Source: an uncultured Dehalococcoidales bacterium (GTDB lineage Bacteria > Chloroflexota > Dehalococcoidia > GIF9 > UBA5629). From it: DNA of 38,618 nt. The notes beneath the pieces were generated by a model that ran no database searches, was not told the DNA's origin, and saw only the letters and a program-made list of their open reading frames with translations. The stretch lies in contig CAYVBI010000003.1 in NCBI GenBank assembly GCA_964448985.1, forward strand, positions 1 through 38,618, given 5' to 3'. Position numbers and translations under genes: made by a program. Positions 2,941 to 38,618 of the stretch are shown one piece after another. Every line of letters starts with the position of its first letter. Positions within the stretch are counted from its first letter, which is position 1.

Positions 2941-3053
2941 TATACACTATCCGTGGAATTCAAGTATAATTGCTACAAATATCAATTAATTTTTACGTAT
3001 ATTTCACCGCATTATTCATATCAGGGGCGGGGTAATATCGAGAGGAGTAATAA

Positions 3054-4493: not shown

Positions 4494-4499
4494 CGGTTA

Positions 4500-4874: not shown

Positions 4875-4964
4875 AATGGTACCCCCTGATCAACGGACTA
4901 TTATAATGTTGTATATTCTGTATTCTACATCAATCATAAACGGCAGGGCGAAACAGTATATCCC

Positions 4965-6577: not shown

Positions 6578-6916
6578 ATGAAAGTACATCATTACCGCGA
6601 AGTCGAAGCTGTGGAGGCCGCTGCCGGCGTGCGTATGCATGTTGTAGCGGGGCCGAAGGAGGGTGCTCCCAATTTCATTATGCGTGTCTTTGAGATCGAG
6701 CCGGGCAGCAACACGCCCTTCCATCAGCACGACTGGGAGCATGAGATTTTTATACTTGAAGGACCTGCGGCGGTCAAACATACGGATGGGGAGACGCCGC
6801 TCAAGCCGGGGCATGCCATTTTTATCCCGGCCAATGAAATGCACGGCATTCTCAATAAGGGAGACCGGACCGTCAAACTGATCTGCGTTATACCCAACGT
6901 AGATAAAAAGCAATAG
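6578..6916 (+). CDS. cupin-domain protein
   Basis: GSNTPFHQHDWEHEIFILEG ... GHAIFIPANEMHGILN matches the two cupin motifs. ggagg SD at 6568-6572 favours the ATG at 6578 over the track GTG at 6572. Confidence 0.7.
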   Translation: MKVHHYREVEAVEAAAGVRMHVVAGPKEGAPNFIMRVFEIEPGSNTPFHQHDWEHEIFILEGPAAVKHTDGETPLKPGHAIFIPANEMHGILNKGDRTVKLICVIPNVDKKQ

Positions 6917-7014
6917 CCTCTCTCCACATCCTTGATATTGTTTGACATGGGCTTTGAACAGGGTTTAACATATATCTTTGTTGTGTATTTGTTCACCTTT
7001 GAGAGAAATTGCTG

Positions 7015-7605
7015 ATGGCTTCGAAATCATCCCTCGATAATAAACCGCTGGAGATCAGATGGCATGGGCGTGGCGGTCAGGGTGCGATCACCGCTGCCAA
7101 GATTATTGCGGAGGCAGCGTATGCCAAAGGCTACAAGGGTGTAACCGCCGCTCCGTCCTTCGGGGCAGAGAGGCGCGGTGCGCCTGTCAGCGCTTCAACC
7201 AGGATATCCAGCGAACCGGTGCTGGTCGTATCGCAGGTCGAGCATCCAGCCATAGTAGTTGTGCTCGATCATACCCTGCTCAAGTACCCGGATGTCATCC
7301 AGGGCCTGGGCAAGAACGGGTGGCTGGTGGTAAATTCCCCTCTTTCGCCCAGGGAACTCGGGCTTAAAGGGGAGTTCAACATCGCGACCGCCGACGCTAC
7401 CAAAGTATGTCAGGACCTCGAGTTGATAGTAGCGGGGCTGGTAATTGTCAACACCGCCATATTGGGAGCACTGGTACGAGCTACGAAAATTGTGGATATT
7501 CCAACGCTGGAAAAGGTTGTGCGCGAACGTTTTTCCCGCAATACGGTGGACATCAATCTGGCAGCGATAAATAAGACTTACGAGATAACTAAAGTAGGCA
7601 AATAG
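7015..7605 (+). CDS. porG: 2-oxoacid (pyruvate-type):ferredoxin oxidoreductase gamma subunit
   Basis: IRWHGRGGQGAITAAKIIAEAAYAKGYKGVTAAPSFGAERRGAPV is the gamma-subunit signature. First gene in a gamma-delta-alpha-beta order. The 2-oxoacid substrate is not determinable from sequence alone. Confidence 0.85.
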   Translation: MASKSSLDNKPLEIRWHGRGGQGAITAAKIIAEAAYAKGYKGVTAAPSFGAERRGAPVSASTRISSEPVLVVSQVEHPAIVVVLDHTLLKYPDVIQGLGKNGWLVVNSPLSPRELGLKGEFNIATADATKVCQDLELIVAGLVIVNTAILGALVRATKIVDIPTLEKVVRERFSRNTVDINLAAINKTYEITKVGK

Positions 7606-7615
7606 GATATTCACC

Positions 7616-7912
7616 ATGGGTACCAGGGAATGTAACCACATCTGCGACGAATCATCGCCCGGCATCGGCGAGGCGGGCCGCACCGGCGAGTGGCGCACTC
7701 ACGTTCCGGTGATAGACGACAAGAGATGCACGGCTTCAAAATTGAATAAGCCGACCTGCTTCCTCTGCTGGCTCTATTGCCCCGAAGCAGTCATGACCAA
7801 GGCGATACCACCCACTATAGACCTGGAATACTGCAAGGGATGCGGCATCTGCGCACAGGTATGCCCGGTGCAGGCTATTACCCTGGTCCCCGAAGAAAAA
7901 AAACTGAGCTGA
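7616..7912 (+). CDS. porD: 2-oxoacid:ferredoxin oxidoreductase delta subunit (2x[4Fe-4S])
   Basis: Two ferredoxin motifs: CFLCWLYCPEAV and CKGCGICAQVCPVQAI. Lies between the gamma and alpha subunits. Confidence 0.85.
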   Translation: MGTRECNHICDESSPGIGEAGRTGEWRTHVPVIDDKRCTASKLNKPTCFLCWLYCPEAVMTKAIPPTIDLEYCKGCGICAQVCPVQAITLVPEEKKLS

Positions 7913-7918
7913 TATCAG

Positions 7919-9139
7919 ATGGCAGTACAGAGAAAATCAAACATGCATATCCTCGACGGCAACCAGGCAGCCGCGATAGCGGCCAAGATGAGCCGGGTAC
8001 AGGTAGTGGCCGCTTATCCCATTACTCCACAGACACCACTCACGGAAAAGCTCTCGCACTTCGTGGAGGATGGCCAGCTCAAGGCCGAGTATGTCGCCGT
8101 TGAAAGCGAGCACAGCGCCATGGCGGTATGCACCTCGGCCTCCACCGTGGGCGCACGCGCTTTCACTGCCACCAGCTCACACGGGCTGGCATACATGCAC
8201 GAGATGCTGCACTGGGCCGCCGGCGCTCGTCTTCCCATTGTCATGGCCTGTGTAAACCGCGCCATCGGGGCGCCCTGGAATGTTCTTAACGACCAGCAGG
8301 ATTCGATCTCGCAGCGTGATACGGGTTGGATCCAAATATACTGCCGCAACAACCAGGATATACTTGACACGATTATACAGGCATATCGCATAGCCGAGAG
8401 CGTTTATGTGCCCGTCATGGTCTGCTACGACGGATATATACTATCCCATACCGAGATGCCGGTCGATATACCCGAGCAGGTGGACGTGGACCGCTACCTG
8501 CCACCTTATAAACCTCACACTTCGCTGGACCCGGACAATCCCAAGAACTATAACCTGGTTACGCTGGCCAATCCACGAGTTGGTGTGGACGGCAAGCTCT
8601 GCCATGGCTATATGGAGCTCAGGTACCTGCTGCAGGAAGCTCTTCAGAACTCCAGGGAAACAATCCTGCAGGCAGGAAGGGAATTCAACGATATATTCGG
8701 ACGCGATTATGCATGTATGTTCTGGGAAGAGCGTAATGAGGATGCCGAGATCACGATCGTCGCCATGGGAAGCCTGGCCTCTGAAGCGATCGTGGCGGCG
8801 GACATGCTGAGAGAAGAAGGCATCAAGGTGGGCGTGTTGGGGTTGCGTGTATTCCGCCCCTTCCCCAAGCAGGATGTCGTACAGGCCCTGCGTAAATCAC
8901 GTCTGATCGTGGTTTTCGATAAAAATATCAGCTACGGCTCGGAAGGCGCTACCTGTTCGGAGATCAAATCGGCGCTTTATGGCACATATATCAACGCCGC
9001 CATCAGGAATTTCATCGTTGGATTGGGCGGCCGCGATGTCAAAGCCCGTGAGCTTGCTGAAGCTACCAAGAAAGCCATATCATCCCTGAAAGAGACGGTG
9101 ACCAATCCGGATTACCCCGAATGGATCTGCCAAATCTAA
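7919..9139 (+). CDS. porA: 2-oxoacid:ferredoxin oxidoreductase alpha subunit
   Basis: LDGNQAAAIAAKMSRVQVVAAYPITPQTPLTEKL ... ESEHSAMAVC is typical of the POR/VOR alpha N-terminal domain. Confidence 0.9.
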   Translation: MAVQRKSNMHILDGNQAAAIAAKMSRVQVVAAYPITPQTPLTEKLSHFVEDGQLKAEYVAVESEHSAMAVCTSASTVGARAFTATSSHGLAYMHEMLHWAAGARLPIVMACVNRAIGAPWNVLNDQQDSISQRDTGWIQIYCRNNQDILDTIIQAYRIAESVYVPVMVCYDGYILSHTEMPVDIPEQVDVDRYLPPYKPHTSLDPDNPKNYNLVTLANPRVGVDGKLCHGYMELRYLLQEALQNSRETILQAGREFNDIFGRDYACMFWEERNEDAEITIVAMGSLASEAIVAADMLREEGIKVGVLGLRVFRPFPKQDVVQALRKSRLIVVFDKNISYGSEGATCSEIKSALYGTYINAAIRNFIVGLGGRDVKARELAEATKKAISSLKETVTNPDYPEWICQI

Positions 9140-9151
9140 GGAAGAATTGAA

Positions 9152-10057
9152 TTGAAAACGAATGCCGTTAACCTGATTGAGAAAGAGTGGATCTTGCCGG
9201 GCAATCGCACCTGCCCGGGATGCGCTCTCTCCCTGGCATACAGGCACACCCTCAAGGCTCTTGAGGGACAGTGCATTGTCACTGTGCCTGCCAGCTGTGC
9301 AACCGTCATGCATGGTATGTACCCGATAACCGCTGTGAACGTACCCTGCGTTAATACGCCTTTCGCTTCCACCGGCGCTTCAGCTACCGGACTGGTGGCG
9401 GGGCTCAAGGCGCTGGGCAGGAAAGGAATAACCGTTCTGGCATTCGCCGGAGATGGCGGCACACATGATATCGGCATACAGTCGTTAAGTGGCGCGGCTG
9501 AGCGTCAATATGATTTCATGTATATCTGCTACGACAACGAAGGTTATATGAACACCGGCAACCAGCGTTCGGGTTCGACGCCGCTGGGCGCTGTGTCGGG
9601 GACCACACCGATTCTGGGCAAGCAGCAATATCAGAAAGACATGACGGCCATCATGGAGGCGCATGGACTACCCTACGTGGCCACCTGTTCAGCCTCCTAT
9701 CCGTTGGACCTTTACGAAAAGGTTAAAAAGGCAAAAACCATTGAAGGGACCAGGTTTATTCACATACACACACCTTGCCCGCCGGGATGGCTGTTCCCCT
9801 TTAGCGATACCATTAAGTTCGGCGAGATGGCGGTCGAGACCGGCCTTGTCGTCCTCTACGAGATCGAGGACGGCATCTTCAGGCTGACCTCCGCCAGCGA
9901 ATCACTGGCCCGCAAAGGGGGCAACCTGCAGCCTGTGCGCGAGTACTTCAAGTCTCAGGGCAGATTCAAGACCATAACCGAAGAGCAGATCGATGAGCTC
10001 CAGCAATGGGTCAATGCCCGCTGGAAGCAGTGCCTTAACAGGGCCACTAACCTTTAA
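9152..10057 (+). CDS. porB: 2-oxoacid:ferredoxin oxidoreductase beta subunit (TPP-binding)
   Basis: CPGCA near the N-terminus and the TPP motif FAGDGGTHDIGIQSLSGA ... YDNEGYMNTGNQ. TTG start with aaggaag SD 7 nt upstream. Confidence 0.9.
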   Translation: MKTNAVNLIEKEWILPGNRTCPGCALSLAYRHTLKALEGQCIVTVPASCATVMHGMYPITAVNVPCVNTPFASTGASATGLVAGLKALGRKGITVLAFAGDGGTHDIGIQSLSGAAERQYDFMYICYDNEGYMNTGNQRSGSTPLGAVSGTTPILGKQQYQKDMTAIMEAHGLPYVATCSASYPLDLYEKVKKAKTIEGTRFIHIHTPCPPGWLFPFSDTIKFGEMAVETGLVVLYEIEDGIFRLTSASESLARKGGNLQPVREYFKSQGRFKTITEEQIDELQQWVNARWKQCLNRATNL

Positions 10058-10118
10058 TCTCAACCAGCCGGTTGTTCAAGACACCAGCGCCCAACTATCG
10101 ATCCATATAAATCACTGC

Positions 10119-10148
10119 TTGACAAGCACCACCTCATCTTGATAGACT
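10119..10148 (+). promoter_or_regulatory. sigma70-like promoter for the Fe-S paralogue array
   Basis: TTGACA (10119-10124), 18-nt spacer, TAGACT (10143-10148). Lies about 60 nt upstream of the ATG at 10207 and 60 nt after the porB stop. Confidence 0.45.
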
Positions 10149-10206
10149 GCATGCAAATATCCTGCACACAAATTATTTGGTGCAAAAGTATATTAAGAGG
10201 TGTGAG

Positions 10207-11259
10207 ATGGTTGATCCGGTCTATGGGAAATTGGCGGGCGCCCTTAATGCTCGTTCGACTGCTTTCCCCGCCGTCAAATGTGATGAATTCTACGACCTTG
10301 TAGGATTCCTCTTCACTCCGGAAGAGGCCACCATCTTTGTGGCTATGCCGCTGGGGCTGAGCCGTGTTGAAGAGATTGCTGTAAACATGCCCTCCGAGGA
10401 CTTGAAAAAGCTGGAGGGACAGCTTGATGTCATGGCTGACAAGGGGCTGATACATATCCGCGAGAGGGAAGGGGTAAAGCTGTACGAGGCCCTGCCCTTT
10501 GTACCGGGCATCACCGAATTTCAACTCATGAGAGGAATAGTCGATGACAGGCACAAGAAGATCGCCACGTTATTGAAAGACTATTCGAAAGCTATGATCA
10601 GGACCATGCTGTCGGCCGATGCTCCTCCCCTCGAATCCTCGGCGCCCGGCCGCAAGGTGCAGGTGGACCAGGATATCGACAATAAGAGCACGATTGTGCC
10701 CTTCCATGAACTGAAAGAGTTGCTGTTGAAGACGGAGTATATCTCCGTGGGAACATGCATCTGCAGACACCAGGGCGCGTTGCTGGGCAGACCCTCGTCC
10801 AAGCCGGTCAATAACTGCATGGTGCTGGGTGAGTCGGCAAAATTTGCAGCGGAAAGGGGATTCACAACACGTCTGACCAAGGAAGAGGCCATCAAGCGCA
10901 TCGAGGAAGCGGAGGAAGCGGGCCTCATTCACACATTCGCCAACAGCCCTGACAGGTTCACTAACCTGCTGTGCAACTGCTATAAGGACCTGTGTCTGAT
11001 CACCCGCATGACGAGCAAATCTCCCGCACCCAGCTCAGCCGTGAACGCCAGGTACCTGGTCACGATAAAGGCAGATGACTGCACCGGCTGCGAGGCCTGT
11101 GTACCGAGGTGCCAGATGGATGCTCTCAAGATGGTTGAAGGCAGACTACTACGGGACGAGATACGCTGTATCGGCTGCGGCATATGCATGTGGGTTTGCC
11201 CCACCGATGCGCTCGTTCTGGAGCCCAGGCCGGCCAGCAGAATTCCCCTGCGCGGCTGA
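10207..11259 (+). CDS. Cys-rich Fe-S protein, paralogue 1 (C-terminal 2x[4Fe-4S] ferredoxin domain)
   Basis: CTGCEACVPRC and CIGCGICMWVCP ferredoxin motifs, plus upstream CICRHQG...NCMVLG...CNCYKDLC. Start moved to the ATG at 10207 (SD aagagg at 10195-10200), which makes the N-terminus MVDPVYGKL collinear with the other two copies. Confidence 0.8.
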   Translation: MVDPVYGKLAGALNARSTAFPAVKCDEFYDLVGFLFTPEEATIFVAMPLGLSRVEEIAVNMPSEDLKKLEGQLDVMADKGLIHIREREGVKLYEALPFVPGITEFQLMRGIVDDRHKKIATLLKDYSKAMIRTMLSADAPPLESSAPGRKVQVDQDIDNKSTIVPFHELKELLLKTEYISVGTCICRHQGALLGRPSSKPVNNCMVLGESAKFAAERGFTTRLTKEEAIKRIEEAEEAGLIHTFANSPDRFTNLLCNCYKDLCLITRMTSKSPAPSSAVNARYLVTIKADDCTGCEACVPRCQMDALKMVEGRLLRDEIRCIGCGICMWVCPTDALVLEPRPASRIPLRG

Positions 11260-11289
11260 CCACGTTAATAATAATCATGGAGGATGATA

Positions 11290-12345
11290 ATGGTTGATGC
11301 TATTTACGACAAGCTGGCCGCCGCACTGAATGCGCGCGGGACGACCGTGCCTTCGGTTATTTGCCAGGAATACTACGACCTGGTCCAGTTTCTGTTCACG
11401 CCCGAGGAGGCTGCAATAGCCTGCGCCATGCCCATAGAGTATGCGACAGCGGAAGAGATAGCGGCGAATCTCGGGACGAAGGACATCAGGAAATTGGCGA
11501 CACAGCTCGATGGCATGGGTGATAAGGGCCTGATCCATATCAAGGAAACCGGCGGTAAAAAACTCTACGAGGGGTTGCCTTTCGTGCCCGGCCTGATTGA
11601 GTTCCAACTCATGAAAGGGATTGTCGACGATCGCAGCAAACAATGGGCCGCCCTTTTAGCCGCTTATTCCAAGGCTGTTAAGAGAGAATTCATGTCGGGC
11701 AAGCCCATTAAAATTGAAAAATCGGCTCCCGGCAGAACAGTTGCTGTAGGTAAGGAAGTCCGGCAACTCGCCTGTGTAATCCCCTACAAGGAGATGAAAC
11801 AACTGATCCTCGATACCGAGCATATCGCGGCCGGCACCTGCGTCTGCAGGCACCAGGGCAACCTGCTGGGCAAACCGAGCTCCGAACCCATGGGGAACTG
11901 CATGGTCTTCGGGGAGTCGGCGCTATTCTCGATCGAACGCGGTTTCACCAAACAACTGTCCAAGGATGCAGCCCTGAAGATACTGGACGAGGCTGAGGAA
12001 GCCGGCCTGGTCCATAATTATGTCAACAATCCCGGCCAATTCACCAATCTGTTGTGCAACTGCTGCGGGTGCCACTGCTTTATCCTGAGGGGCGCCAAGA
12101 ACGCCCCGGCTCCCAGCCAGATGGTCAATCCCCGATATCTGGTACATGTTAATGACAAGGAATGCACCGGCTGCGAGGCCTGTATCGAACGGTGCTGGAT
12201 GAAAGCCCTGAAAATGGAAAACGGCAAGCTCGTGCGTGAAGAGATACGCTGTATAGGATGCGGCATTTGCATGTGGGCCTGCCCCACCGATGCGCTCTAT
12301 CTCGAACCGAGGGAAGCCGGCAAGGCGCCGCTCCAAAAGTGTTGA
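11290..12345 (+). CDS. Cys-rich Fe-S protein, paralogue 2
   Basis: Collinear with paralogue 1 and identical at well over half of positions by eye. Motifs CVCRHQG, NCMVFG, CNCCGCHC, CTGCEACIERC, CIGCGICMWACP. SD ggagg at 11279-11283. Confidence 0.8.
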   Translation: MVDAIYDKLAAALNARGTTVPSVICQEYYDLVQFLFTPEEAAIACAMPIEYATAEEIAANLGTKDIRKLATQLDGMGDKGLIHIKETGGKKLYEGLPFVPGLIEFQLMKGIVDDRSKQWAALLAAYSKAVKREFMSGKPIKIEKSAPGRTVAVGKEVRQLACVIPYKEMKQLILDTEHIAAGTCVCRHQGNLLGKPSSEPMGNCMVFGESALFSIERGFTKQLSKDAALKILDEAEEAGLVHNYVNNPGQFTNLLCNCCGCHCFILRGAKNAPAPSQMVNPRYLVHVNDKECTGCEACIERCWMKALKMENGKLVREEIRCIGCGICMWACPTDALYLEPREAGKAPLQKC

Positions 12346-12375
12346 TACGCATCAACAAAATTATAGGAGGAGATA

Positions 12376-13428
12376 ATGGTTGAACCTGTCTACGAAAAAT
12401 TGATACCCGTACTCAATTCACGCAGCACTTTTCTGGTCCCCTGTATCAAGTGCGACGAGTTTTTTAACATGGTTGCTTATATGTACAGCCCCGTCGAGGC
12501 AGAGATCGCCTGCGCCATGCCCTACGAATTCGCTACAGCCCGTGAGATTTCAGCCGATATCCCGGGCAGCCATCCTGAGAAGATCGCCGAACACCTGGAG
12601 ACCATGGCAAACAAGGCGCTGATACATTCGAAAAAAGAAAACGGAGAGACGCTCTACGAGCTCCTGCCGCTTTTCCCGGGCGCCATGGAGCTTCAATTCT
12701 GGCGCGATGACAAGGAGTATCTGGGAAAGCTGGATGTCCTGCTCGGCCAATACCTGGTAGCGATGTGGGGCCTTCGGAAATCCGGCGCCCCGATCGTAAC
12801 CGATACCACGTCTACCACCAGAAAAGTAACTGTCGGGCAGGAGATCATGAGCCGGTCCACCATTATTCCCTACTTGGAGATGAAAGAGCTGATCAAGCAG
12901 AGTGAGTATATCGGTGTTGCGCTCTGCCATTGCCGCCAACTTGGTGAACAATGGGGCAGGCCATGCTCCAAACCCATGGATAACTGCATGATATTAGGAT
13001 CGTCCGCTCAATTCACCATCGAAAAGGGATTAACCAAACGTCTTAATGTCGAGCAAGCACTTCATATACTGGATGAAGCAGAAAAGGCCGGGCTGATACA
13101 TCAATACGCCGATACGCCCGATCACTATTCCAATATTCTGTGCAACTGTTGCTCATGTCATTGTATAGCGCTCAAGGGCTATAAAAAGTCTCCGGTCCCC
13201 AGCCAGGCTGTCATAGCACGTTACCTGGTCAAGATCGACGATGAAGCCTGCACAACTTGCGAGGCCTGTCTGGAAAGGTGCCAGATGGATGCATTGAAAA
13301 TGGACGGAGGCAAGCTCACGAGGGACGAATCGCGCTGTATTGGCTGCGGGCTATGTATGTACGTCTGCCCCGCTGAGGCATTGTCCCTGGAGAAGAGGCC
13401 TGCTGGCAAAATACCTCTGAGAACATGA
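12376..13428 (+). CDS. Cys-rich Fe-S protein, paralogue 3
   Basis: Same architecture: CHCRQLG, NCMILG, CNCCSCHC, CTTCEACLERC, CIGCGLCMYVCP. SD aggagg at 12366-12371. Confidence 0.8.
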   Translation: MVEPVYEKLIPVLNSRSTFLVPCIKCDEFFNMVAYMYSPVEAEIACAMPYEFATAREISADIPGSHPEKIAEHLETMANKALIHSKKENGETLYELLPLFPGAMELQFWRDDKEYLGKLDVLLGQYLVAMWGLRKSGAPIVTDTTSTTRKVTVGQEIMSRSTIIPYLEMKELIKQSEYIGVALCHCRQLGEQWGRPCSKPMDNCMILGSSAQFTIEKGLTKRLNVEQALHILDEAEKAGLIHQYADTPDHYSNILCNCCSCHCIALKGYKKSPVPSQAVIARYLVKIDDEACTTCEACLERCQMDALKMDGGKLTRDESRCIGCGLCMYVCPAEALSLEKRPAGKIPLRT

Positions 13429-28338: not shown

Positions 28339-30630
28339 TCACGTCAGTTTTCGCAGGTCCTGCTGCTCGATAATGTCTATTTTTTGTTGCATAGCAAACT
28401 GTTTGGCTTGTGTGCTTATCTCCGAAAAACCCAGGAAAACCTTGTTGCGGATACCTGCATCAAAGGCCGCGGCATCGAACTTCGACAATTCATCCAGGCC
28501 AAGCGGCTGACCGGTTTCGCTGCCGATGCCGATCGCAATCGTAGGTACCACTATCTTATCATCACGCCTGGCAAAAATATCGAAAATATGTTCGATACCT
28601 GATTTGCCGAGAATCAGTGCCCTCTCATATACTTCATACCCCTTATTGCGAAGGAACCTCACGATGATGCCACGCGCATTGGCCGCCACCGAACCGGAAT
28701 GGTTTGCTCCCGCTTCCACCCTGCTCTGCATTCCGATATTGGAACGGTCGAGGTGAGTGATATCTGCAACCACCGTCGCCAGAGTTTTAGCTTCAAATGC
28801 TCTGATCATTTGCCGGCCGGCGAAATTCAATGCCTCCTGCCCAAGCTTGGGAATGGCTATCACCACTTTATAGTTTATCCCGATATCATAAGCCCGTGTA
28901 TCGAACCTGAAAAGCGATTCAAGCCCAACTTCCGGTTCCCCCGATGGTGCAACAAGTATACCTATACCGAGATTGATCTTGGTGATAATATCGTCCCTGA
29001 TGGCAAGCACATCCACGGTATGCACTGCACCCGAACGTCCCGTCAGCTGAGCCAGCTCGTGGACCTGATAGCCCTGGTGTTTCAGGAAATCGACAAGCTG
29101 CGTCTTAGGTTTAAGCTGGAATTCCAGCCACCCCTTTTTATCGGGGCTGAACTGGTACGAATATGCCTCAACTTCTTTCAGCTCTTCGGAAGCCCATATT
29201 TTACGTGTCTTCATATTGCGCCATTTCACGACCGGTACAGTAAAGACCTCAGTGCAATCCTGGCACCTGTAATGGATGCCGACATTGCGGTAATCGGTGC
29301 CGATCAATCTTAAATCCTTTCGGCACTTCGGGCAGACGTACCTGCTATCCTGTTTAAAATCCTTGTCAAGCCCCACGTATCCACAGGAAAAATGCTCGAC
29401 AAGTTGTCCTTTAATTATGTTGGACGAGTCACAGCGCGGGCACCTTTCAATAGGAACAAGTTGAAATAGCCCGTCAGGGTCAACATAAAATTTTTCATAC
29501 GATTGCTTGAGCAATATGCCATTATCGGCGAGAGATTCGAGAATGTTTAGCGTGTCAATCTCGGAAGTATCAAGCAGGCTGCTAACTGTCGGATAAGCGA
29601 ATCCCATTTTATAACTGAAATCGACCACAGGGTTGATATCAGGAAGTTTACCGCTTACCAGCGCATCTACAAGCTTGACGACTCTCGCGTCCTCGAGAAC
29701 TGCCGCACCAGCATCTTCCTGAGCAGGCTGCGCCTTGGCCACGTAAGCAGATTGTTGTGCCGGAGGATTAATCACGATGGGTGAGGGCTGCTTTTTTATA
29801 TCGCGCCCAAGCGGAGGTACCACTATGGGTGCTTGCTCCCGCATCTGAGGCGGCGCTGCCGGCCTGGGTACTATCACGACCGGCTGCTCCAACGACTCCG
29901 GTGTCTGGTAAACCTGTGCTGCAGGCATAGGCGGGGCCGGCTGTACATATGCCTGTGGTTGCACATATGGCTGTTGTACAGGTGGCGCCTGTGGCTGCGG
30001 AGGAGCTTCGTACTGCTGGGGCTCTGGCCGAGGCCTGATGATTATCCTTTCCTGTCCCGAAGCCGCCTGTGGTTGGGCATCCATTTCAGGTCTGACCGGT
30101 GCAGGCTGTGGCTGGCTGTATACCGGCCCGCGGGCAGCAGGCTCCGGTGCACGTACCGGCGCACCCGCTTCCTTCTCCTTGGGCCTTGACCTGGTCGGAG
30201 GTCTAACAACTGTTTCCCGGGCAGCGGGCGCCGCCTGCTTCGCAGCCGCCTCTTCAGCGGCGCCCTCAGTGCCGGGCCGTCTCAGCAATGCTTTGATGCG
30301 CGCCAGCAACTCCCTCGGGCTGATGGGTTTGCGTAAATAAAGGTCAAAACCCAGTTCCTCAACACGAGACCATGCATCCGAGTCCGGAATGGTTCCGAGA
30401 AGAACAATCAATGCGCTCTGCTGTTGCCTGATCTTGAGACACGCTTCATAACCGCTGACATCGGACAGCTCATCGTCAATTATTATGACATCGTAATTGG
30501 TTTTGTCCATCATCACCAGACCGTCAAGACACCCCGACGTTCCGTTTGCATCAAGGCCGCTCTGTTGCAGGATCTCGACGTTCTTCTCTTTTAAGACGGA
30601 ATCGCTTGAAAGAAAGAGAATCTGACTCAT
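28339..30630 (-). CDS. atypical response regulator: REC + long Pro/Gln/Ala-rich linker + multi-Cys zinc-ribbon region + two tandem degenerate Mrr/PD-(D/E)xK-like domains
   Basis: REC domain at residues 1-118 (acceptor D52 in VIIIDDE, T80, K101-P). Linker at about residues 120-305. Cys motifs CPRC...C...CPKC...CQDC at residues 397-459. Repeat units at about 509-615 and 650-760 share FL..GY.V.E.A..G.SG..H..D..A.RDD......IGI. SD gaggga lies 6 nt before the ATG. Confidence 0.75.
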   Translation of the reverse strand: MSQILFLSSDSVLKEKNVEILQQSGLDANGTSGCLDGLVMMDKTNYDVIIIDDELSDVSGYEACLKIRQQQSALIVLLGTIPDSDAWSRVEELGFDLYLRKPISPRELLARIKALLRRPGTEGAAEEAAAKQAAPAARETVVRPPTRSRPKEKEAGAPVRAPEPAARGPVYSQPQPAPVRPEMDAQPQAASGQERIIIRPRPEPQQYEAPPQPQAPPVQQPYVQPQAYVQPAPPMPAAQVYQTPESLEQPVVIVPRPAAPPQMREQAPIVVPPLGRDIKKQPSPIVINPPAQQSAYVAKAQPAQEDAGAAVLEDARVVKLVDALVSGKLPDINPVVDFSYKMGFAYPTVSSLLDTSEIDTLNILESLADNGILLKQSYEKFYVDPDGLFQLVPIERCPRCDSSNIIKGQLVEHFSCGYVGLDKDFKQDSRYVCPKCRKDLRLIGTDYRNVGIHYRCQDCTEVFTVPVVKWRNMKTRKIWASEELKEVEAYSYQFSPDKKGWLEFQLKPKTQLVDFLKHQGYQVHELAQLTGRSGAVHTVDVLAIRDDIITKINLGIGILVAPSGEPEVGLESLFRFDTRAYDIGINYKVVIAIPKLGQEALNFAGRQMIRAFEAKTLATVVADITHLDRSNIGMQSRVEAGANHSGSVAANARGIIVRFLRNKGYEVYERALILGKSGIEHIFDIFARRDDKIVVPTIAIGIGSETGQPLGLDELSKFDAAAFDAGIRNKVFLGFSEISTQAKQFAMQQKIDIIEQQDLRKLT
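28351..29106 (-). repeat. internal protein-level duplication (two ~105-aa nuclease-fold-like units)
   Basis: Unit A (28786-29106): LVDFLKHQGYQVHELAQLTGRSGAVHTVDVLAIRDD...LGIGI...GLESLFRFDTRAYDIGI. Unit B (28351-28683): IVRFLRNKGYEVYERALILGKSGIEHIFDIFARRDD...AIGIG...GLDELSKFDAAAFDAGI. Confidence 0.75.
29716..30273 (-). repeat. coding low-complexity Pro/Gln/Ala-rich linker
   Basis: Examples: QPQPAPVRPEMDAQPQAA, PQPQAPPVQQPYVQPQAYVQPAPPMPAAQVYQ, VPRPAAPPQ. In frame within the 763-aa ORF, with no regular DNA period. Confidence 0.85.
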
Positions 30631-32865: not shown

Positions 32866-34200
32866 ATGACACGACCACAATTAACTGTTAACGATCTGAG
32901 AAACCTGGAGAGCAGTATCCGAGATAAATCGGCTGATATAGGGGTTGTGGGATTGGGGTATGTGGGGTTGCCCCTGGCGCTGGCCTTTGCTGAAGCAGGA
33001 TTCAATGTGACCGGTGTTGATGCAGATAAGGGACGTGTCAATAAGATTATCCGGGGCACGTCTTACCTGCTGGATATTGAATCGGCTCGTCTAAAAAAAG
33101 CTGTTGCCAAAGGACGGTTAAAAGCTACCACCAGTCAATCAGCACTGCGCAGAGTAGATACGATCATTATCTGTGTTCCTACTCCACTTACCAAGACCAA
33201 GGAGCCCGATCTGACGTATATCGTCAGCGCTACCAATGATATCGCCCGTTTCCTGCGTCTGGGTCATCTGGTTATTTTGGAGAGCACGACTTACCCGGGC
33301 ACTACGCGGGAGATTGTGTTGCCGCTACTGGAATCCACCGGCCTCAAGGTGGGTGTGGACTACTTCCTGACCTTTTCGCCCGAACGTATCGATCCGGGCA
33401 GCCGGAAGTTTACTATCAGGAACACACCCAAGATTGTCGGGGGCATGGAACCTACGTCTACCAAACTCGCCGCACTGCTGTACGGACACGTATCCGACAA
33501 GGTCCTCGAAGTATCCACACCGGAAGTGGCCGAGATGGATAAAGTCTTCGAGAATGTATTCCGCAGCGTCAATATCGCTCTGGTAAACGAGCTCGCCAAG
33601 CTTTGCGAAAAGATGAACATAAACGTGTGGGAAGTAATCAAGGCGGCATCCTCCAAACCATTCGGTTACATGCCGTTTTATCCGGGCCCCGGGGTGGGCG
33701 GCCATTGTATTCCTCTTGATCCATACTATCTCGCCAGCAAAGCCAGAGAGTATTTTTTTCACACCAGGTTTATCGAACTGGCTGCCGAAATAAATGAAAC
33801 GATGCCTGAATACATCGTCGAGCAAATCGTGGCTGCGCTTAACACAAGGAGTAAAAGCGTAAAAGGGGCCAAAATACTCATTCTGGGCGTGGCCTACAAG
33901 AAAGATATTGAGGACATCAGAGAGTCACCCGCATTAAGAGTTATCGAACTGCTTATCGAGAAGAAAGCCGCGCTCCATTACCATGATCCTTACATCCCTG
34001 ATTTTAAAGAGGGAAACCATAAGCTCCGGTCGATCAAGCTTACCAAGAAAGTATTTAGCAACTATGATTGCGTGGTAATACTGACCGATCACAGCTGCTA
34101 TGACCTGAAAGCTTTAGCAAAGGAAGCTAAGCTGATATTCGATACACGCGGATGCACCGTCGGCATCAACTCCGCAAATATCATCCGTCTGGGCGAATAG
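32866..34200 (+). CDS. nucleotide-sugar 6-dehydrogenase (UDP-GlcNAc/ManNAc/Glc dehydrogenase family)
   Basis: IGVVGLGYVGLPLALAFAEAGFNVTGVD Rossmann motif and catalytic-Cys motif GPGVGGHCIPLDPYY. Substrate not resolvable. Confidence 0.85.
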   Translation: MTRPQLTVNDLRNLESSIRDKSADIGVVGLGYVGLPLALAFAEAGFNVTGVDADKGRVNKIIRGTSYLLDIESARLKKAVAKGRLKATTSQSALRRVDTIIICVPTPLTKTKEPDLTYIVSATNDIARFLRLGHLVILESTTYPGTTREIVLPLLESTGLKVGVDYFLTFSPERIDPGSRKFTIRNTPKIVGGMEPTSTKLAALLYGHVSDKVLEVSTPEVAEMDKVFENVFRSVNIALVNELAKLCEKMNINVWEVIKAASSKPFGYMPFYPGPGVGGHCIPLDPYYLASKAREYFFHTRFIELAAEINETMPEYIVEQIVAALNTRSKSVKGAKILILGVAYKKDIEDIRESPALRVIELLIEKKAALHYHDPYIPDFKEGNHKLRSIKLTKKVFSNYDCVVILTDHSCYDLKALAKEAKLIFDTRGCTVGINSANIIRLGE

Positions 34201-34330
34201 CGCGTATCTCCCTGTTAATAACGTCCGCATCGGTTTGCCGCGCACGAGGGATTGAGGAAATCTATCGTCATATGCCTGTCATATCCCGCAAATAGCTCCC
34301 GGCAACGCCCGGGCACATGTGATATTTTCG

Positions 34331-35152
34331 TTATCGTTGCGAGATTTTCCTTATCTTGCCGTCTATTATCGACTGCACCAATCCGGGGAAGAGCCTTTTC
34401 ATAAAATATGTATACTTTGTGCCTGACCCCGGCAGAATAAGGAACTGCCCCCTGCCCATACCAGCGATTACATCCCTGGCAACATCGATCGGTTTAATAA
34501 TGGAAGCGGATGAGGAAATGGCTTTGGTCTCCTCAGGCTTGATCTTATTGGCCCTGTCGAGCATCGGTGTATCGACATCCGGGGGACACAGCACGGAAAC
34601 GGAGATGTTGTACCGCTTCAATTCACTTCTTAAAGCTTCGGAGAAGCCTATCACCGCAAACTTAGATGCGCTGTAGGCGCTCAAGCCGAAAACTCCTATA
34701 TAACCGGCAACGGAGGACACATTAATAATGTATCCGCCACGCTTCTTCATATAGGGCAGCAGAATCGCAACGGTATTCCAGGTCCCGTTCAAGTTGATGT
34801 GAACAATTTCATCGAATTTAGTGTAGGAAATATCTTCAAAGCGTTGGGGATAGGAAACACCTGCGCTGTTAATTAGAATATCCGGGCTGCCGAAATCGAC
34901 GGCCACCTTGCTAAGTAGATTTTCGGCCTGTGCATGTTGCGAAACATCAAGCCGGACCGCCAGGAAACGTTGTTTCTGCGATACCCTGTTCCGTTCGATT
35001 TTCGTCAACGCCTTATCGAGTTGCTCCTGGCCCCGGGCGAAGATCACCACGTCGGCGTCCCTGGCGGCCATTTGTTCCGCGCAGGCCAGGCCTATGCCGC
35101 TCGATCCTCCCGTAATGAATGCGATTTTCCCCGCAAAGTCTTTAAACTTCAT
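34331..35152 (-). CDS. classical short-chain dehydrogenase/reductase (SDR)
   Basis: IAFITGGSSGIG (TGxxxGxG), NSAG, catalytic S...YSASK. Last gene in the same-strand series after the 2-KPCC-like gene. Confidence 0.85.
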   Translation of the reverse strand: MKFKDFAGKIAFITGGSSGIGLACAEQMAARDADVVIFARGQEQLDKALTKIERNRVSQKQRFLAVRLDVSQHAQAENLLSKVAVDFGSPDILINSAGVSYPQRFEDISYTKFDEIVHINLNGTWNTVAILLPYMKKRGGYIINVSSVAGYIGVFGLSAYSASKFAVIGFSEALRSELKRYNISVSVLCPPDVDTPMLDRANKIKPEETKAISSSASIIKPIDVARDVIAGMGRGQFLILPGSGTKYTYFMKRLFPGLVQSIIDGKIRKISQR

Positions 35153-35252
35153 TATAAATCAGCAACCCCCGTGCTTTAAGGTGTGCAATTTTCAAACAAC
35201 CCCGATGCTCAGCTATATTAGCCGCTCGATATACTCATGTAAAGCGCGGGCC

Positions 35253-36749
35253 CTAACCCAGGTCCACCAGATTCTTCATACCGGAGCGCAATCGTGAGAG
35301 CTGGATAAAATGCGTGGGATTGATGAAGAGCTCTGTGAGATTGGCTATATCATCGATAGTCGCACCTTTCTTCAGCAGGTACAGCAGGTACTGGAATGAG
35401 TCCTTACCGCCATAGCCCACGTGCTGTGCGCCCAGGAATTTACGGGTCTTTGCATCATAGATAATCTTCTGGAACCCGGACAGGTCCGGCCATTGGTGAG
35501 CGAATTCCATGGTCCCCTCGGCCAGGGGTAAAGGCAGCCAGTTCTTGTAGCCCTGTATGGGCATCCTGGCTACAAAGACCTGCCCGACCTTCTCTTTGGC
35601 CTCTTTCTCGGTCATGCCCACCCAGGTGGTCTCGTAGAATGTATGCAACGTATCTGCAAATAGCTCGGTCTCGAATTCTGCGGGAGCTCCGAGTATATTC
35701 TTGGCCGCCATCATGCCGCCCTGCCTGGCCTTCCACATCTCCATGACGCCGCCTGTGATATCGCCACTGGCGTATATCCCGGGTACGTTGGTTGCCATGT
35801 GTTTGTCAATGATTATCTCTTTCTTGGGACCGGTTTTAACACCGACCGGAGTGACAATCTCCGAGCGCGGCGCGCATCCTGTTCCCAGATACACAAGATC
35901 TGCCTTAATTACCTTCTCCACACCGTCTTTCCCCTTGACCGTCACGGATTTGACCGAGCCGCTACCGTTTATAGAGACCAGCGTGGTCTCGTCAAGCACC
36001 GGCAGGCCCCTGATCTTCATCATGCGAAGAGTATATTCCCTTACATCATCGTCGATGGGGAACTGGCTGAGAGCCGGCATCATCTCGACCACGGTAGTGT
36101 TGCAGCCGACCGCGTTGAAAAAGGCAGCCCAGGGCAGCCCGCTCTTGGAGGCGCCCACCACTACAACATCTTTGGGCTCGTAATCCAGCTCAAGAAAATC
36201 TGCGTAAGTATATACGCCCTTGAGTTTAGTTCCAGGCACGGGGGGCACAGAGGGCCCGGCGCCAGCCGCCACGATGATGTTCTTTGTTTTAAACTCGCCC
36301 TTACCCTGAACTGAGACAGTGTGCGCATCAAGAACGGAGGCACGCTGGTTGAGCAAAAACTGTAGTTTAAGCTGCTCCTTGCTCTGGTGGAACATAAAAT
36401 CAAATACATACTCCCGGCCTATATGGTAGTCCCTCAGTATTGGTAATATTTCAACCTTACCATTTTTCCCGGGGAACTTGGGCCAGTATTCTTTCTTGTC
36501 CCAGATTCTCGCCTTGTCCAGCTCAACGGCTATCTCGTAAAGATAGTGGTGCAGCACGCAGGCGTTTTTACAGCATTTACCGCCCAGGTGGTTGTCAGCC
36601 TCGATGGTAAGCTGGTTGCCGCCCATGGCGCGGAAGTACGAGGAACCGAACCTTCCTGAAGCTCCGCCGCCGATAAAAATGGCGTCCCATTCCCGGGTGG
36701 TTGAATCATAATTGTCATACGGCCTTCGGCTATCGTAAAAAGTTGTCAT
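35253..36749 (-). CDS. FAD-dependent pyridine-nucleotide-disulfide oxidoreductase, 2-ketopropyl-CoM oxidoreductase/carboxylase (2-KPCC)-like
   Basis: DAIFIGGGASGRFG FAD motif. Redox pair C59-CKNA-C64. Second Rossmann motif VVVVGASKSG. C-terminal ELFINPTHFIQLSRLRSG has F-x4-H where canonical members carry H-x4-E. SD aggagag. Confidence 0.7.
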   Translation of the reverse strand: MTTFYDSRRPYDNYDSTTREWDAIFIGGGASGRFGSSYFRAMGGNQLTIEADNHLGGKCCKNACVLHHYLYEIAVELDKARIWDKKEYWPKFPGKNGKVEILPILRDYHIGREYVFDFMFHQSKEQLKLQFLLNQRASVLDAHTVSVQGKGEFKTKNIIVAAGAGPSVPPVPGTKLKGVYTYADFLELDYEPKDVVVVGASKSGLPWAAFFNAVGCNTTVVEMMPALSQFPIDDDVREYTLRMMKIRGLPVLDETTLVSINGSGSVKSVTVKGKDGVEKVIKADLVYLGTGCAPRSEIVTPVGVKTGPKKEIIIDKHMATNVPGIYASGDITGGVMEMWKARQGGMMAAKNILGAPAEFETELFADTLHTFYETTWVGMTEKEAKEKVGQVFVARMPIQGYKNWLPLPLAEGTMEFAHQWPDLSGFQKIIYDAKTRKFLGAQHVGYGGKDSFQYLLYLLKKGATIDDIANLTELFINPTHFIQLSRLRSGMKNLVDLG

Positions 36750-36781
36750 TCTATCTCTCCTGCATCCTAATTTATTAAGGC

Positions 36782-36997
36782 TCAGTCTTTTAATACGTGC
36801 GTAACCGTACGTATACAGTCAAGCCTGTTACAGGTTGTCTCTATCTTCTCGAAATTGCGGAAAGCCAGCCCGAAGTTGTCAGCGCTCAGCTTAACTTTGC
36901 AGACAAAGCATTTGAGCTTGCCGGCAACCAGGTTGTCCCAGATTCCCAGGTATTGCAGGTGGTCCTTAAGTTCGCCCTGATAAGATTGTAGACGCAT
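36782..36997 (-). CDS. 71-aa 4-Cys (CxxC...CxxxxC) small protein
   Basis: Strong SD aggagg 6 nt before the ATG. Cys residues at 30, 33, 56 and 61 (CFVC...CNRLDC). Sits between the LarA-like and 2-KPCC-like genes with 38- and 32-nt gaps. Confidence 0.55.
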   Translation of the reverse strand: MRLQSYQGELKDHLQYLGIWDNLVAGKLKCFVCKVKLSADNFGLAFRNFEKIETTCNRLDCIRTVTHVLKD

Positions 36998-37035
36998 TTT
37001 ACGCCTCCTGATTAATATAATGACTGGAAATTATT

Positions 37036-38490
37036 TTACTTTACGTAAAACCTGGGCCTGACTCTGGTCCAGAAGGACGGACAGGCCATGACCCGGGGAT
37101 TCTTGCCGACGATTTTTTCGGCAATTTTCATTGCGTCCGCAAAATTCCTGGCAGGCGTGCAGCCGACGTCGCGCACCGAGCCGGGCCCTCCGGTACCGCT
37201 GACCTGCACCTGCGCCAGGGGATTGTCCATGCCCGGCACGCCGGCCATGATGATTTTATTGGCATGGTTTAGCGCATACTCACTCTCATACATCAGCCAG
37301 AAGCCGTGCACCGGCGCATATGCATAGGCGTGCCTGTATTTAAAGATGAGGTCCTCGCGGTGCATAAACTCCTCCTGGTAAATAGACAGTTCCTGCATGG
37401 AAAAACAGTTCCGGTAAAGGTCGAGTATTTCTGCATATGAAGGATGCGACCTCTCGTCTATGGTCCCGTCGCAGTGTGCCAGTGCTATGACTACTCCGCC
37501 CTCCCTCAACAGGGGCTTGTTGACCCACATGCGTACCGGGGCACATGCTGCGGCGAGCGCTATCAGTGGATTACTGGTCTCGCCGTACAGCGAGTAGCGG
37601 GGCACGCCGTATATAAGCACATCGGCCTGAGGCACCTCCATGTGATAGATGCTTTCGGCAAATTTCCAGGTAGGCTCGTTGATCTCAGGCGAATAACCTG
37701 CAAAAATACCGGCCGGTGCGCCACCGGCAGTGGGTACGACATCTACGTAAAATACACGTTTGCCGGTATGTTTTTCGATCTGGGCCATGACTGCTTCCTT
37801 GTGAGAGCGGTACATCATGGTATGCTGATTGCCGTGGCAGGAATCAGGATGGCCGACAACAGGAAAACCGTGTGTCGAAGTCATGCTGCGCGTGCTGGGG
37901 TAACCGATTATCACGCCTGTCCCAGTCATGCCGCCCCAGTTCGAAACGACGACTGTGCCGGTATATATAAAGAGTTCGGAATCTTCCAGCGCCCTGTTGT
38001 ACTCCACATAATCGCCCATGGCAGATGTGCCCATATATACAAGGTTATCCGCATCATGGCAGTCATGGTTTATGACCCTTGAGGCGCTGCCGGAGGGTGC
38101 AAACCTGTCATATATGGCCGGGCCCAGGTAAGCCCTTAACTGAGGATCGGTCCATTTGCAGTGATTGCCGCTGCCGCACAGCAAATATATATTTTCTTCC
38201 TTCACACCAGCCTTTAGCAGCTCTTCAATGAGAATAGGGATAATCATCTGCCGCGGCTTCCCGGGCCGGGAGGGATCATCAAAACCGATGGTGACTTTGC
38301 CGTTACGCGCCTTTTTGGCCAGATCAGCCAGAGGTGGAGCACCGATCGGCTTTGCAATGGCCTCCCGTATGACTTTTTCGGGATCCTTTAAGGCCGGGGG
38401 ATTGGGTATCTCTCCGACTACTGTGTCTTCCGGCACCTCAATGTCAATCTTCCTGTCCCAATAGTCTGCCTGGATCGTTTTATTACTCAC
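37036..38490 (-). CDS. LarA-like (lactate racemase N-terminal domain / DUF2088) protein
   Basis: AIAKPIGAPPLADLA...KVTIGFDDPSRPGKP...LLCGSGNHCKWT...VINHD follows the LarA_N pattern (PIGS..L, D.TRP, ATG.HR, NHD). Start moved to the GTG at 38490, which has aaggagg 6 nt upstream; the track TTG at 38508 lies inside that SD. Confidence 0.65.
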   Translation of the reverse strand: MSNKTIQADYWDRKIDIEVPEDTVVGEIPNPPALKDPEKVIREAIAKPIGAPPLADLAKKARNGKVTIGFDDPSRPGKPRQMIIPILIEELLKAGVKEENIYLLCGSGNHCKWTDPQLRAYLGPAIYDRFAPSGSASRVINHDCHDADNLVYMGTSAMGDYVEYNRALEDSELFIYTGTVVVSNWGGMTGTGVIIGYPSTRSMTSTHGFPVVGHPDSCHGNQHTMMYRSHKEAVMAQIEKHTGKRVFYVDVVPTAGGAPAGIFAGYSPEINEPTWKFAESIYHMEVPQADVLIYGVPRYSLYGETSNPLIALAAACAPVRMWVNKPLLREGGVVIALAHCDGTIDERSHPSYAEILDLYRNCFSMQELSIYQEEFMHREDLIFKYRHAYAYAPVHGFWLMYESEYALNHANKIIMAGVPGMDNPLAQVQVSGTGGPGSVRDVGCTPARNFADAMKIAEKIVGKNPRVMACPSFWTRVRPRFYVK

Positions 38491-38618
38491 CGGTATCCTC
38501 CTTAACAATCAAGATCGATCGGTATTAATCTCCCGATCAGATTCAATGGCGGTCTCATAATATCACAGCAATAACACCAAACCAAACCACTTAATTAATA
38601 TCCCTGGCATTAGACAAA

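Follow-up and report, generated by a model that had tools for sequence, protein, structure and literature searches.

We analysed a 38,618-nucleotide (nt) stretch of DNA from an uncultured Dehalococcoidales bacterium (Chloroflexota; Dehalococcoidia; GIF9; UBA5629)—positions 1 to 38,618 of contig CAYVBI010000003.1 in assembly GCA_964448985.1, hereafter the window—and centred the analysis on a flavoprotein gene and the operon around it. The gene is an uninterrupted open reading frame (ORF) of 498 amino acids (aa), whose ATG start codon is preceded, at a distance of 7 nt, by the Shine-Dalgarno sequence GGAGAG, and its product carries the Pfam domains Pyr_redox_2, Pyr_redox, and Pyr_redox_dim. It is the third of four genes on the same strand, which encode, in order, a LarA-like putative nickel-pincer-nucleotide (NPN) enzyme, a small protein with four cysteines (Cys4), the flavoprotein, and a short-chain dehydrogenase/reductase (SDR). 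An earlier note, made from the letters of the DNA and a list of its ORFs, had read the flavoprotein as a disulfide-oxidoreductase (DSOR) family protein in which the acid-base dyad of the C-terminal segment, His-x4-Glu, is replaced by the Phe and His of 2-KPCC, the enzyme that cleaves and carboxylates 2-ketopropyl-coenzyme M (CoM). Our comparisons bear this out and assign the flavoprotein, which has the DSOR fold, to the family of 2-KPCC.

This assignment emerged from both sequence and structure searches. With phmmer against all PDB sequences, the best match was Xanthobacter 2-KPCC (1MO9; E = 1.4e-124, 420 bits, residues 14-497), whereas the next-best DSOR, a lipoamide dehydrogenase, reached 105 bits; identity is 45% to 2-KPCC versus 22-28% to lipoamide dehydrogenases and glutathione reductases. 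None of the NCBIfam DSOR equivalogs scored at or above its own cut-off for this protein, the lipoamide dehydrogenase equivalog giving 177.8 bits against 408.8 and the glutathione reductase model 129.7 bits against 480. An AlphaFold2 (AF2) model built from a 36-sequence alignment (pLDDT 92, pTM 0.90) gave the same ranking in Foldseek—2-KPCC structures (1MO9, 7MGO) came first, with a TM-score of 0.94, a root-mean-square deviation (rmsd) of 1.6-1.7 Å, 44% identity, and E about 1e-60, and lipoamide dehydrogenases and glutathione reductases came next, with TM-scores of 0.78-0.84, rmsd of about 3.2 Å, and 20-24% identity; the values for lipoamide dehydrogenase were a TM-score of 0.83 and an rmsd of 3.3 Å.

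The residues that set 2-KPCC apart are also found in the window protein. Relative to the Xanthobacter autotrophicus (Xa) enzyme, C59/C64 correspond to C82/C87, R33/R342 to R56/R365, M119/M338 to M140/M361, and F475/H480 to F501/H506; among these, Xa Arg56 is reported (Nocek 2002) to be a ligand of the CoM sulfonate, to which Arg365 also belongs, and Met140 and Met361 flank the thioether. The bare F-x4-H pattern occurs four times in the protein and is not significant by itself, so that its meaning is positional rather than statistical: F475 (nt 35325-35327) and H480 (nt 35310-35312), both within ELFINPTHFIQLSRL, land exactly on F501 and H506 in the phmmer alignment to 1MO9, and the dyad is nearly invariant across the family. 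No H-x4-E occurs in the C-terminal interface segment, the single instance in the protein being H67..E72, right behind the redox cysteines. Lipoamide dehydrogenases and glutathione reductases resemble the window protein in their fold of three domains, their Rossmann motifs for FAD and NAD(P), and their CxxxxC pair; in contrast, they have Tyr and Ser/Ala where it has Arg33 and Arg342, and the lipoamide dehydrogenase outgroup (Tyr and Ser at these CoM-sulfonate positions) retains an HPTL[AS]E dyad and has neither the 2-KPCC insertion (Xa about 425-445) nor the C-terminal FIQLSRLR tail, both of which the window protein possesses. The motifs read in the earlier note—IFIGGGASG, C59-C-K-N-A-C64, F475, and H480—recur at the same residues and nucleotides, the substitution it proposed stands, and the comparisons it called for, with 2-KPCC, glutathione reductase, and lipoamide dehydrogenase and on the CoM-sulfonate arginines and the 2-KPCC-specific insertion, all came out on the side of 2-KPCC. 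Of the two outcomes that the note had named as refuting its reading—a conventional H-x4-E dyad aligned elsewhere, and an identity to 2-KPCC that does not exceed that to generic DSORs—neither was observed. In the literature, 2-KPCC is the sole carboxylating member of the DSOR family; its F501 excludes protons and blocks protonation, an F501H variant restores DSOR-like behaviour, and H506 together with R365 forms an anion pocket for the carboxylate (PMC8358701).

Table 1. Features of the flavoprotein gene and its operon in the window (Xa, Xanthobacter autotrophicus 2-KPCC)
Feature	Position (nt)	Strand	Basis or remark
2-KPCC-family flavoprotein gene (K84-type sister clade), 498 aa	35253..36749	(-)	ORF, translation, Pfam, PDB match, AF2, dN/dS
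FAD GxGxxG motif IFIGGGASG, residues 24-32	36654..36680	(-)	Translation; G27/G29/G32 invariant in alignment
Arg33, equivalent of Xa Arg56	36651..36653	(-)	Alignment
Redox motif C59-C60-K61-N-A-C64	36558..36575	(-)	C59/C64 = Xa C82/C87; Cys60 for Pro83; Lys61 for His84
F116-D-F-M119-F120-H121 block	36387..36404	(-)	Phe116 for Xa His137; Met119 = Met140; Phe120 for Asn141; aligned without gaps, QSKEQL as anchor
V220-V-E222-M223-M224, end of second Rossmann beta-strand	36078..36092	(-)	NADH-type acidic residue; Xa Arg245 equivalent lost
Arg342, equivalent of Xa Arg365, within MEMWKAR; Met338 = Met361	35724..35726 (Arg342)	(-)	Alignment
2-KPCC-type insertion LPLPLAEGTMEFAHQWPDLS, residues about 405-424	35478..35537	(-)	In all F-x4-H clades; gap in lipoamide dehydrogenase outgroup
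F475-I-N-P-T-H480, Phe/His dyad replacing DSOR His-x4-Glu	35310..35327	(-)	Aligns to Xa F501/H506
C-terminal tail FIQLSRLRSGMKNLVDLG, 2-KPCC-family-specific	35256..35309	(-)	Alignment; without counterpart in lipoamide dehydrogenase outgroup
LarA-like (Lar_N) putative NPN enzyme, first operon gene	37036..38508	(-)	Pfam Lar_N 2.3e-34
71-aa Cys4 protein (CFVC...CNRLDC), between LarA-like gene and DSOR	36782..36997	(-)	Strong AGGAGG ribosome-binding site
Classical SDR, 273 aa, last operon gene	34331..35152	(-)	Pfam adh_short 3.4e-56

Within this family, the protein stands apart from the canonical enzymes. Searching 5.8 billion proteins, we recovered three groups of relatives—a tight, metagenome-only clade at 58-94% identity to the window protein, the canonical 2-KPCC clade at 41-47%, and, at 35-38%, a third clade. 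When 118 sequences were aligned with MAFFT and a neighbour-joining tree was drawn, they formed three F-x4-H clades, all of which retain the equivalents of R56, R365, and F501..H506 (the Arg33 position is at least 97% conserved in each), and the protein fell in a clade sister to canonical 2-KPCC. In Xa numbering, the canonical clade is marked by the redox motif C-P-H84-[NQE]-A-C together with H137-x-x-M-N141, the window clade by C-[CPT]-K-N-A-C together with [FY]137-D-x-M-[FY]141, and the third clade by C-H-V-C-R-C. In the set of 78 canonical sequences, 12 positions show conservation of at least 95% for a residue that never occurs there in the window clade; these include H84K, H137F/Y, N141F/Y, F77H (an invariant His in the window clade), and R245M. 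His84, His137, and Asn141 are invariant in 78/78 canonical sequences, H137 and N141 are never seen in the window clade, and Lys84 and Phe/Tyr137 are fixed throughout it. The N-terminal extension is also about 23 residues shorter than that of Xa 2-KPCC. Judged by its sequence, the window protein is not an XecC orthologue and belongs to the sister clade; the impression that it is very close to XecC holds for the N- and C-terminal stretches, where the block ELF[I/L]NPTHFIQLSRLR.G.KNLV.L is about 84% identical to Xanthobacter 2-KPCC, but not for the protein as a whole.

One of these substitutions bears on the choice of nicotinamide cofactor. R245M falls in the sequence TTVVEMMP, and its VVEMM core is identical to that of the NAD-dependent lipoamide dehydrogenases of the outgroup, whereas the Xanthobacter counterpart reads LVRTEP and canonical 2-KPCC has L-V/S-R; because of this match to NAD-type enzymes, the window enzyme would be expected to use NADH rather than NADPH. 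The same NADH-type motif, along with Lys84, Phe/Tyr137, Asp138, and MEMWKAR, is present in other K84-type members of the sister clade (P0007-P0012 and P0016, at loci L025-L030 and L051; 49-64% identity). Unlike the window protein, however, these relatives have Pro at position 83, a MetE-family (EaCoMT-like) neighbour, and two HPCDH-like SDRs, and no LarA-like gene lies near any of their loci.

The DSOR gene is found at 85-97% identity in 17 genomes, all of them metagenome-assembled genomes (MAGs) of Dehalococcoidia/Chloroflexota, in a scan that took one genome per GTDB species; its ratio of nonsynonymous to synonymous substitution rates (dN/dS), calculated against eight of the 17 orthologues, is 0.02-0.04 (about 0.03) where dS is unsaturated. 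Given this ratio and an operon kept in 17 species genomes, we consider the gene functional. The order of LarA-like gene, 71-aa ORF, and DSOR is the same in 17/17 genome loci, and the SDR follows 3′ of the DSOR in 13/17 genome and 11/13 metagenome loci. The branch of the gene occurs in Dehalococcoidia of oxygen-free sediment and the host is a strict anaerobe; the other genes of the window, which include ComEA/ComEC, 2-oxoacid:ferredoxin oxidoreductase subunits, ferredoxin-domain proteins, an acyl-CoA dehydrogenase, and two-component systems, have the profile of an anaerobic bacterium.

The partner genes differ from those of Xa 2-KPCC, which works alongside EaCoMT and R-/S-HPCDH. The first operon product has LarA_Sp (9Q2U, E = 3e-53) as its best PDB match; LarA_Sp represents a LarA subfamily, described recently, in which only one His is catalytic and for which no substrate is known (PMC12611868). 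In common with LarA_Sp and LarA_Bw (9Q2U, 9Q3J; PMC12611868), the operon product shows the Lar_N fold, a single catalytic His (His116 in GNHCK, at the position of Lp His108), an Asn in place of the second His (in SNWGG, at the position of Lp His174), and a conserved Asp; it differs from them in sharing only about 31% identity, in a gap at the NPN-tethering Lys (Lp Lys184; LarA_Sp Lys195), and in a sulfonate/DSOR context rather than carbohydrate genes. Orthologues of this LarA-like protein at 46-63% identity adjoin F-x4-H DSORs in other lineages. The 71-aa Cys4 protein, for which we found no Pfam or NCBIfam match, is encoded at 17/17 genome and 13/13 metagenome loci of the Dehalococcoidia lineage (66-100% identity) and, at 51%, in the more distant locus L024. 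The SDR is a generic classical SDR and not HPCDH-like, the structures of R- and S-HPCDH (2CFC and 4GH5) not being among its top 60 PDB matches. Just outside the window, upstream and divergent, lies an ABC transporter whose binding protein scores 156.6 bits to the SsuA aliphatic-sulfonate family against a cut-off of 163.5 (L002). No E1 or E2 genes adjoin the DSOR, and a scan of positions 34000-38618 for promoters and terminators gave no more matches than shuffled sequences did.

An independent metagenome scan that gave 78 loci separated the DSOR types by their neighbours. At about 34 loci of the canonical C-P-H type there was no LarA-like gene, no SsuA-like gene, and no gene for a beta-keto-acid cleavage enzyme (BKACE), and an EaCoMT-like gene was present in 12. 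Among loci with enough flank, the LarA-like gene was found at 11/11 of the window type, C-C-K-N-A-C (13 loci in total, each with the 71-aa ORF), and at 9/9 of the third clade (13 loci in total, SsuA-like genes in 5). A single C-C-K-H-N-C locus had a LarA-like gene and no other neighbour detected, and a single C-P-K-N-A-C locus had EaCoMT-like and HPCDH-like genes and no LarA-like gene. We also observed that every LarA-associated F-x4-H DSOR (L031, L033, L036, L078-L088) has an extra Cys inside the redox motif (C-C-K-N-A-C, C-C-K-H-N-C, or C-H-V-C-R-C) and that every EaCoMT-associated one has Pro, at position 83, after the first Cys; the one exception to the pairing of extra Cys and LarA is L024, with C-C-K-N-A-C and no LarA-like gene within 10 kb.

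More divergent relatives occur in a range of gene contexts. Locus L024 (72% identity) has the 71-aa ORF, the DSOR, an SDR, a class-III aminotransferase, a TRAP transporter, and another SDR, with an SsuABC-like transporter further on. Loci L025-L028 (63%) encode an aldehyde dehydrogenase, a CoA-transferase, an acyl-CoA synthetase, an SDR, a MEDS regulator, a MetE-family protein, the DSOR, and an SDR, and L029 and L030 (49%) encode two SDRs, a MetE-family protein, the DSOR, and two SsuABC-like systems; MetE is the family to which EaCoMT belongs, and the first SDR of L029/L030 has S-HPCDH (4GH5) as its best PDB match. The PALP, decarboxylase, and aminotransferase genes of L025-L028 were considered as a possible Xcb-type route of CoM biosynthesis and rejected, as they do not match the XcbB-E families (PMC9457059). 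At L031 and L032 (45%, C-C-K-H-N-C), the DSOR is followed in order by a LarA-like gene, a binding protein, LarB, and LarC, and genes for a SauS-like dehydrogenase and a BKACE lie near the cluster. In L031 (6145-7401 and 17088-19199), a bacterial homologue of MMP16 (CoM synthase ComF; 506 bits against a 364-bit cut-off), MMP16 being the CoM synthase of Methanosarcina (PMC12068725), lies directly 5′ of the 2-KPCC-like DSOR, and a glycyl radical enzyme resembling isethionate sulfite-lyase (5YMR, E = 3e-199) is encoded in the same neighbourhood.

The pair of DSOR and LarA-like gene was found in three divergent DSOR subclades. Relatives of the LarA-like protein at 54-63% identity again adjoin F-x4-H DSORs in L036 (a Clostridia MAG) and L035, and a relative at 42% in L037 occurs with larBCE and without a DSOR. 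In L033 (= L034, L052), positions 2341-5510 hold two tandem F-x4-H DSOR genes, the third-clade one first; in the second, which is K84-like and shares 50% identity with the window protein, Ala stands for the charge-transfer Cys87 (CPKEGA), and this suggests a heterodimer or a non-redox subunit. At L033 and L034, the tandem genes are followed by a LarA-like gene (60% to that of the window), SsuABC, and an SDR. Transporters of the SsuA family stand beside clusters at L002, L024, L029, L033, L036, and many metagenome loci, and none was found at canonical 2-KPCC loci. BKACE genes lie near six LarA-type clusters (L031, L035, L047, L080, L086, and L096). In L047 (positions 6620-11881), an orthologue at 88% identity, genes for a class-III aminotransferase, amino-acid permeases, a reductase of the PanE/ApbA type, and a BKACE stand where the SDR gene would be, hinting that an amine can precede the keto-thioether. 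A rule by which clusters have either two SDRs without LarA or one SDR with a LarA-type racemase did not hold, being broken by L035 (LarA with two or three SDRs) and by L031 and L036 (no SDR).

Drawing these lines of evidence together, we propose that the window enzyme is a CoM-linked carboxylase that depends on NADH and reductively cleaves the C-S bond of a keto-thioether, a reading whose chances we rate as even. A link to sulfonates and CoM is seen in the SsuA-family transporters beside the cluster, in the MMP16 homologue of L031, and in the EaCoMT-like plus HPCDH-like operons of K84-clade relatives, and the BKACE genes favour a beta-keto-acid product. The retained sulfonate-binding positions indicate that the enzyme would bind CoM or a similar ethanesulfonate thiol. 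By homology with 2-KPCC, a homodimeric FAD enzyme might work as follows. NADH, as the VVEMM motif suggests, would reduce FAD and then the C59/C64 disulfide; an ethanesulfonate-thioether, CoM-S-CH2-C(=O)-R or a near analogue, would bind so that Arg33 and Arg342 hold its sulfonate and Met119 and Met338 flank its sulfur; Cys59 would attack the thioether sulfur to give a Cys59-S-S-CoM mixed disulfide and an enolate; Phe475 would withhold a proton from the enolate, which could capture CO2 beside His480 and Arg342 to yield a beta-keto acid; and Cys64 would then release CoM. Although the three clades share only 36-50% identity, they have an essentially invariant Phe at the acid/base position; this is our main argument that proton exclusion is under selection, and hence for carbanion/CO2 chemistry over simple disulfide reduction. 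On the oxyanion/ketone side, the pocket is rebuilt, with Lys61, Phe116, Asp117, Phe120, and His54 where the canonical enzyme has His84, His137, and Asn141, which makes acetone an improbable keto-moiety and 2-ketopropyl-CoM an improbable substrate. The suggestion of a CO2-fixing homologue in the earlier note thus remains plausible in its chemistry, although the likely substrate is a different one and the gene context is not an epoxide-carboxylase operon. As for the partners, the LarA-like enzyme and the SDR could prepare the keto-thioether, a class-III aminotransferase taking the place of the SDR in sister species; the adjoining SsuA-type ABC transporter may import CoM or a sulfonate substrate; and beta-keto-acid cleavage enzymes near related clusters might consume the product.

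Several observations weigh against this proposal. The window protein has lost the His84/His137 pair, residues that Kofoed and co-workers reportedly found in 2011 to be important for the redox-dependent reactions of 2-KPCC, and has exchanged Pro83 for Cys60. No EaCoMT-like (Meth_synt_2), HPCDH-like, CoM-biosynthesis, MMP16, or larBCE genes were found in the window or within 10 kb at the 17 orthologous loci (L001-L017). For a strict anaerobe, it is not obvious where epoxides would come from. The link to BKACE is loose, the genes lying several kb away and at a minority of loci, and SsuA-type binding proteins are no proof of CoM transport.

The main alternative, suggested by gene contexts of the MMP16, isethionate-lyase, and taurine types and with a modest but real chance of being correct, is that the cluster serves CoM salvage or catabolism, with the DSOR reducing CoM homodisulfide or mixed disulfides, or dealkylating CoM thioethers with simple protonation, such that no CO2 is fixed. 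Free CoM would come from methanogen necromass, and the LarA-like enzyme, SDR, aminotransferase, and MMP16 would interconvert CoM, sulfoacetaldehyde, and isethionate, which would feed sulfite lyases. The union of MMP16/ComF-like, DSOR, LarA-like, LarB/C, SauS-like, and isethionate-sulfite-lyase-like genes at L031 fits this scenario, as does that of DSOR, class-III aminotransferase, IsfD-like SDRs, and TRAP transporter at L024; sulfonate ABC importers, moreover, accompany LarA-type clusters and not canonical ones, and the loss of the enolate-stabilising His pair with the gain of the cationic Lys61 could create a second sulfonate site. However, one would expect a simple disulfide reductase to have kept the His-Glu dyad, whereas the Phe at the acid/base position is invariant and, as the F501H variant of 2-KPCC shows, it is a His there that restores DSOR-like behaviour (PMC8358701). 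K84-clade relatives are found in operons with EaCoMT-like and HPCDH-like genes, BKACE neighbours point to beta-keto acids, and neither an isethionate lyase nor MMP16 lies near the gene in the window lineage.

We consider it improbable that the protein is a true equivalent of XecC, which would convert 2-ketopropyl-CoM and CO2 to acetoacetate in, for example, the anaerobic metabolism of acetone, isopropanol, or propanediol; in that case Lys61 would simply take on the role of the water bound by His84 and His137. The CoM-binding and dyad residues are all kept, and P0016 (49% identity), which shares the FDFMFH and K84 signature, has an EaCoMT-like gene and two SDRs as neighbours, the first SDR with S-HPCDH (4GH5) as its best PDB match. 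On the other hand, the 12 positions conserved in canonical enzymes are systematically different, three of them in the ketone pocket; the SDR of the window is not HPCDH-like; the operon has a LarA-like partner and no EaCoMT-like gene; and a BKACE step would be futile if the product were acetoacetate. The JGI name of the cluster representatives ('dihydrolipoamide dehydrogenase') and the generic architecture of Pyr_redox_2 plus Pyr_redox_dim might lead one to believe that the protein is an ordinary E3 (dihydrolipoamide dehydrogenase) or a disulfide reductase of the glutathione type, but this reading has almost no chance of being right and is refuted by the alignment; the low identity, the missing C-terminal His-x4-Glu, scores below all NCBIfam DSOR cut-offs, and the lack of adjoining E1/E2 genes count against it. 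A further candidate, a reductive desulfonase of sulfopyruvate or sulfoacetol, was rejected, as the Arg33/Arg342 site would by homology lie a CoM-length from Cys59 and, to our knowledge, there is no precedent for a thiolate attacking the sulfur of a sulfonate.

Tentatively, and with more doubt than confidence, we suggest that the LarA-like protein and the F-x4-H flavoprotein together form an undescribed CoM-linked pathway of strict anaerobes (Dehalococcoidia, Clostridia, and Desulfobacterota-like), in which a hydride-borrowing nickel enzyme would make or isomerise a CoM thioether and a 2-KPCC-type enzyme would cleave it reductively, with CO2 ending up in a beta-keto acid. In the literature searched, outside the coverage of which most subscription journals fall, we found no description of this clade, of a 2-KPCC homologue in Dehalococcoidia, or of a DSOR-LarA module, and the module may be a new pathway. 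In bacteria, the established role of CoM is confined to the aerobic metabolism of alkenes and epoxides, and the CoM biosynthesis genes of anaerobic bacteria are without an assigned use (bioRxiv 10.1101/2021.03.22.436540). At least two further clades, in anaerobes, retain both the Phe/His 'carboxylase' dyad and the residues that bind CoM; in these clades the ketone pocket is rebuilt, NADH dependence is probable, and the LarA-like nickel-pincer partner is fixed. Should our proposal be true, the range of C-S cleavage and CO2 fixation carried out by DSORs would extend beyond 2-KPCC, an orphan LarA subfamily would gain a function, and the role of CoM in anaerobic bacteria would become directly testable through a defined four-gene operon; the pathway reading, if true, would give CoM its first role in anaerobic bacteria and add to the DSOR carboxylases a second family, one independent of oxygen.

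Elsewhere in the window, a scan found no tRNA genes, and the G+C content is about 0.53 in the first 20 kb, about 0.48 at 20-34 kb (cell-envelope polysaccharide and two-component genes), and higher again over the DSOR operon. Positions 10177-13428 (+), directly 3′ of the 2-oxoacid:ferredoxin oxidoreductase subunit genes (7009-10057), hold three tandem paralogous ORFs of about 350 aa, whose single Pfam match is a C-terminal two-cluster ferredoxin domain and whose N-terminal stretch of about 280 aa is without a match. Finally, positions 28339-30630 (-), adjoining genes for an OmpR-type regulator and a GAF histidine kinase, encode a 763-aa response regulator composed of a receiver, a Pro/Gln/Ala-rich linker of about 200 aa, a TackOD1 output domain, and an Mrr_cat-like C-terminus.

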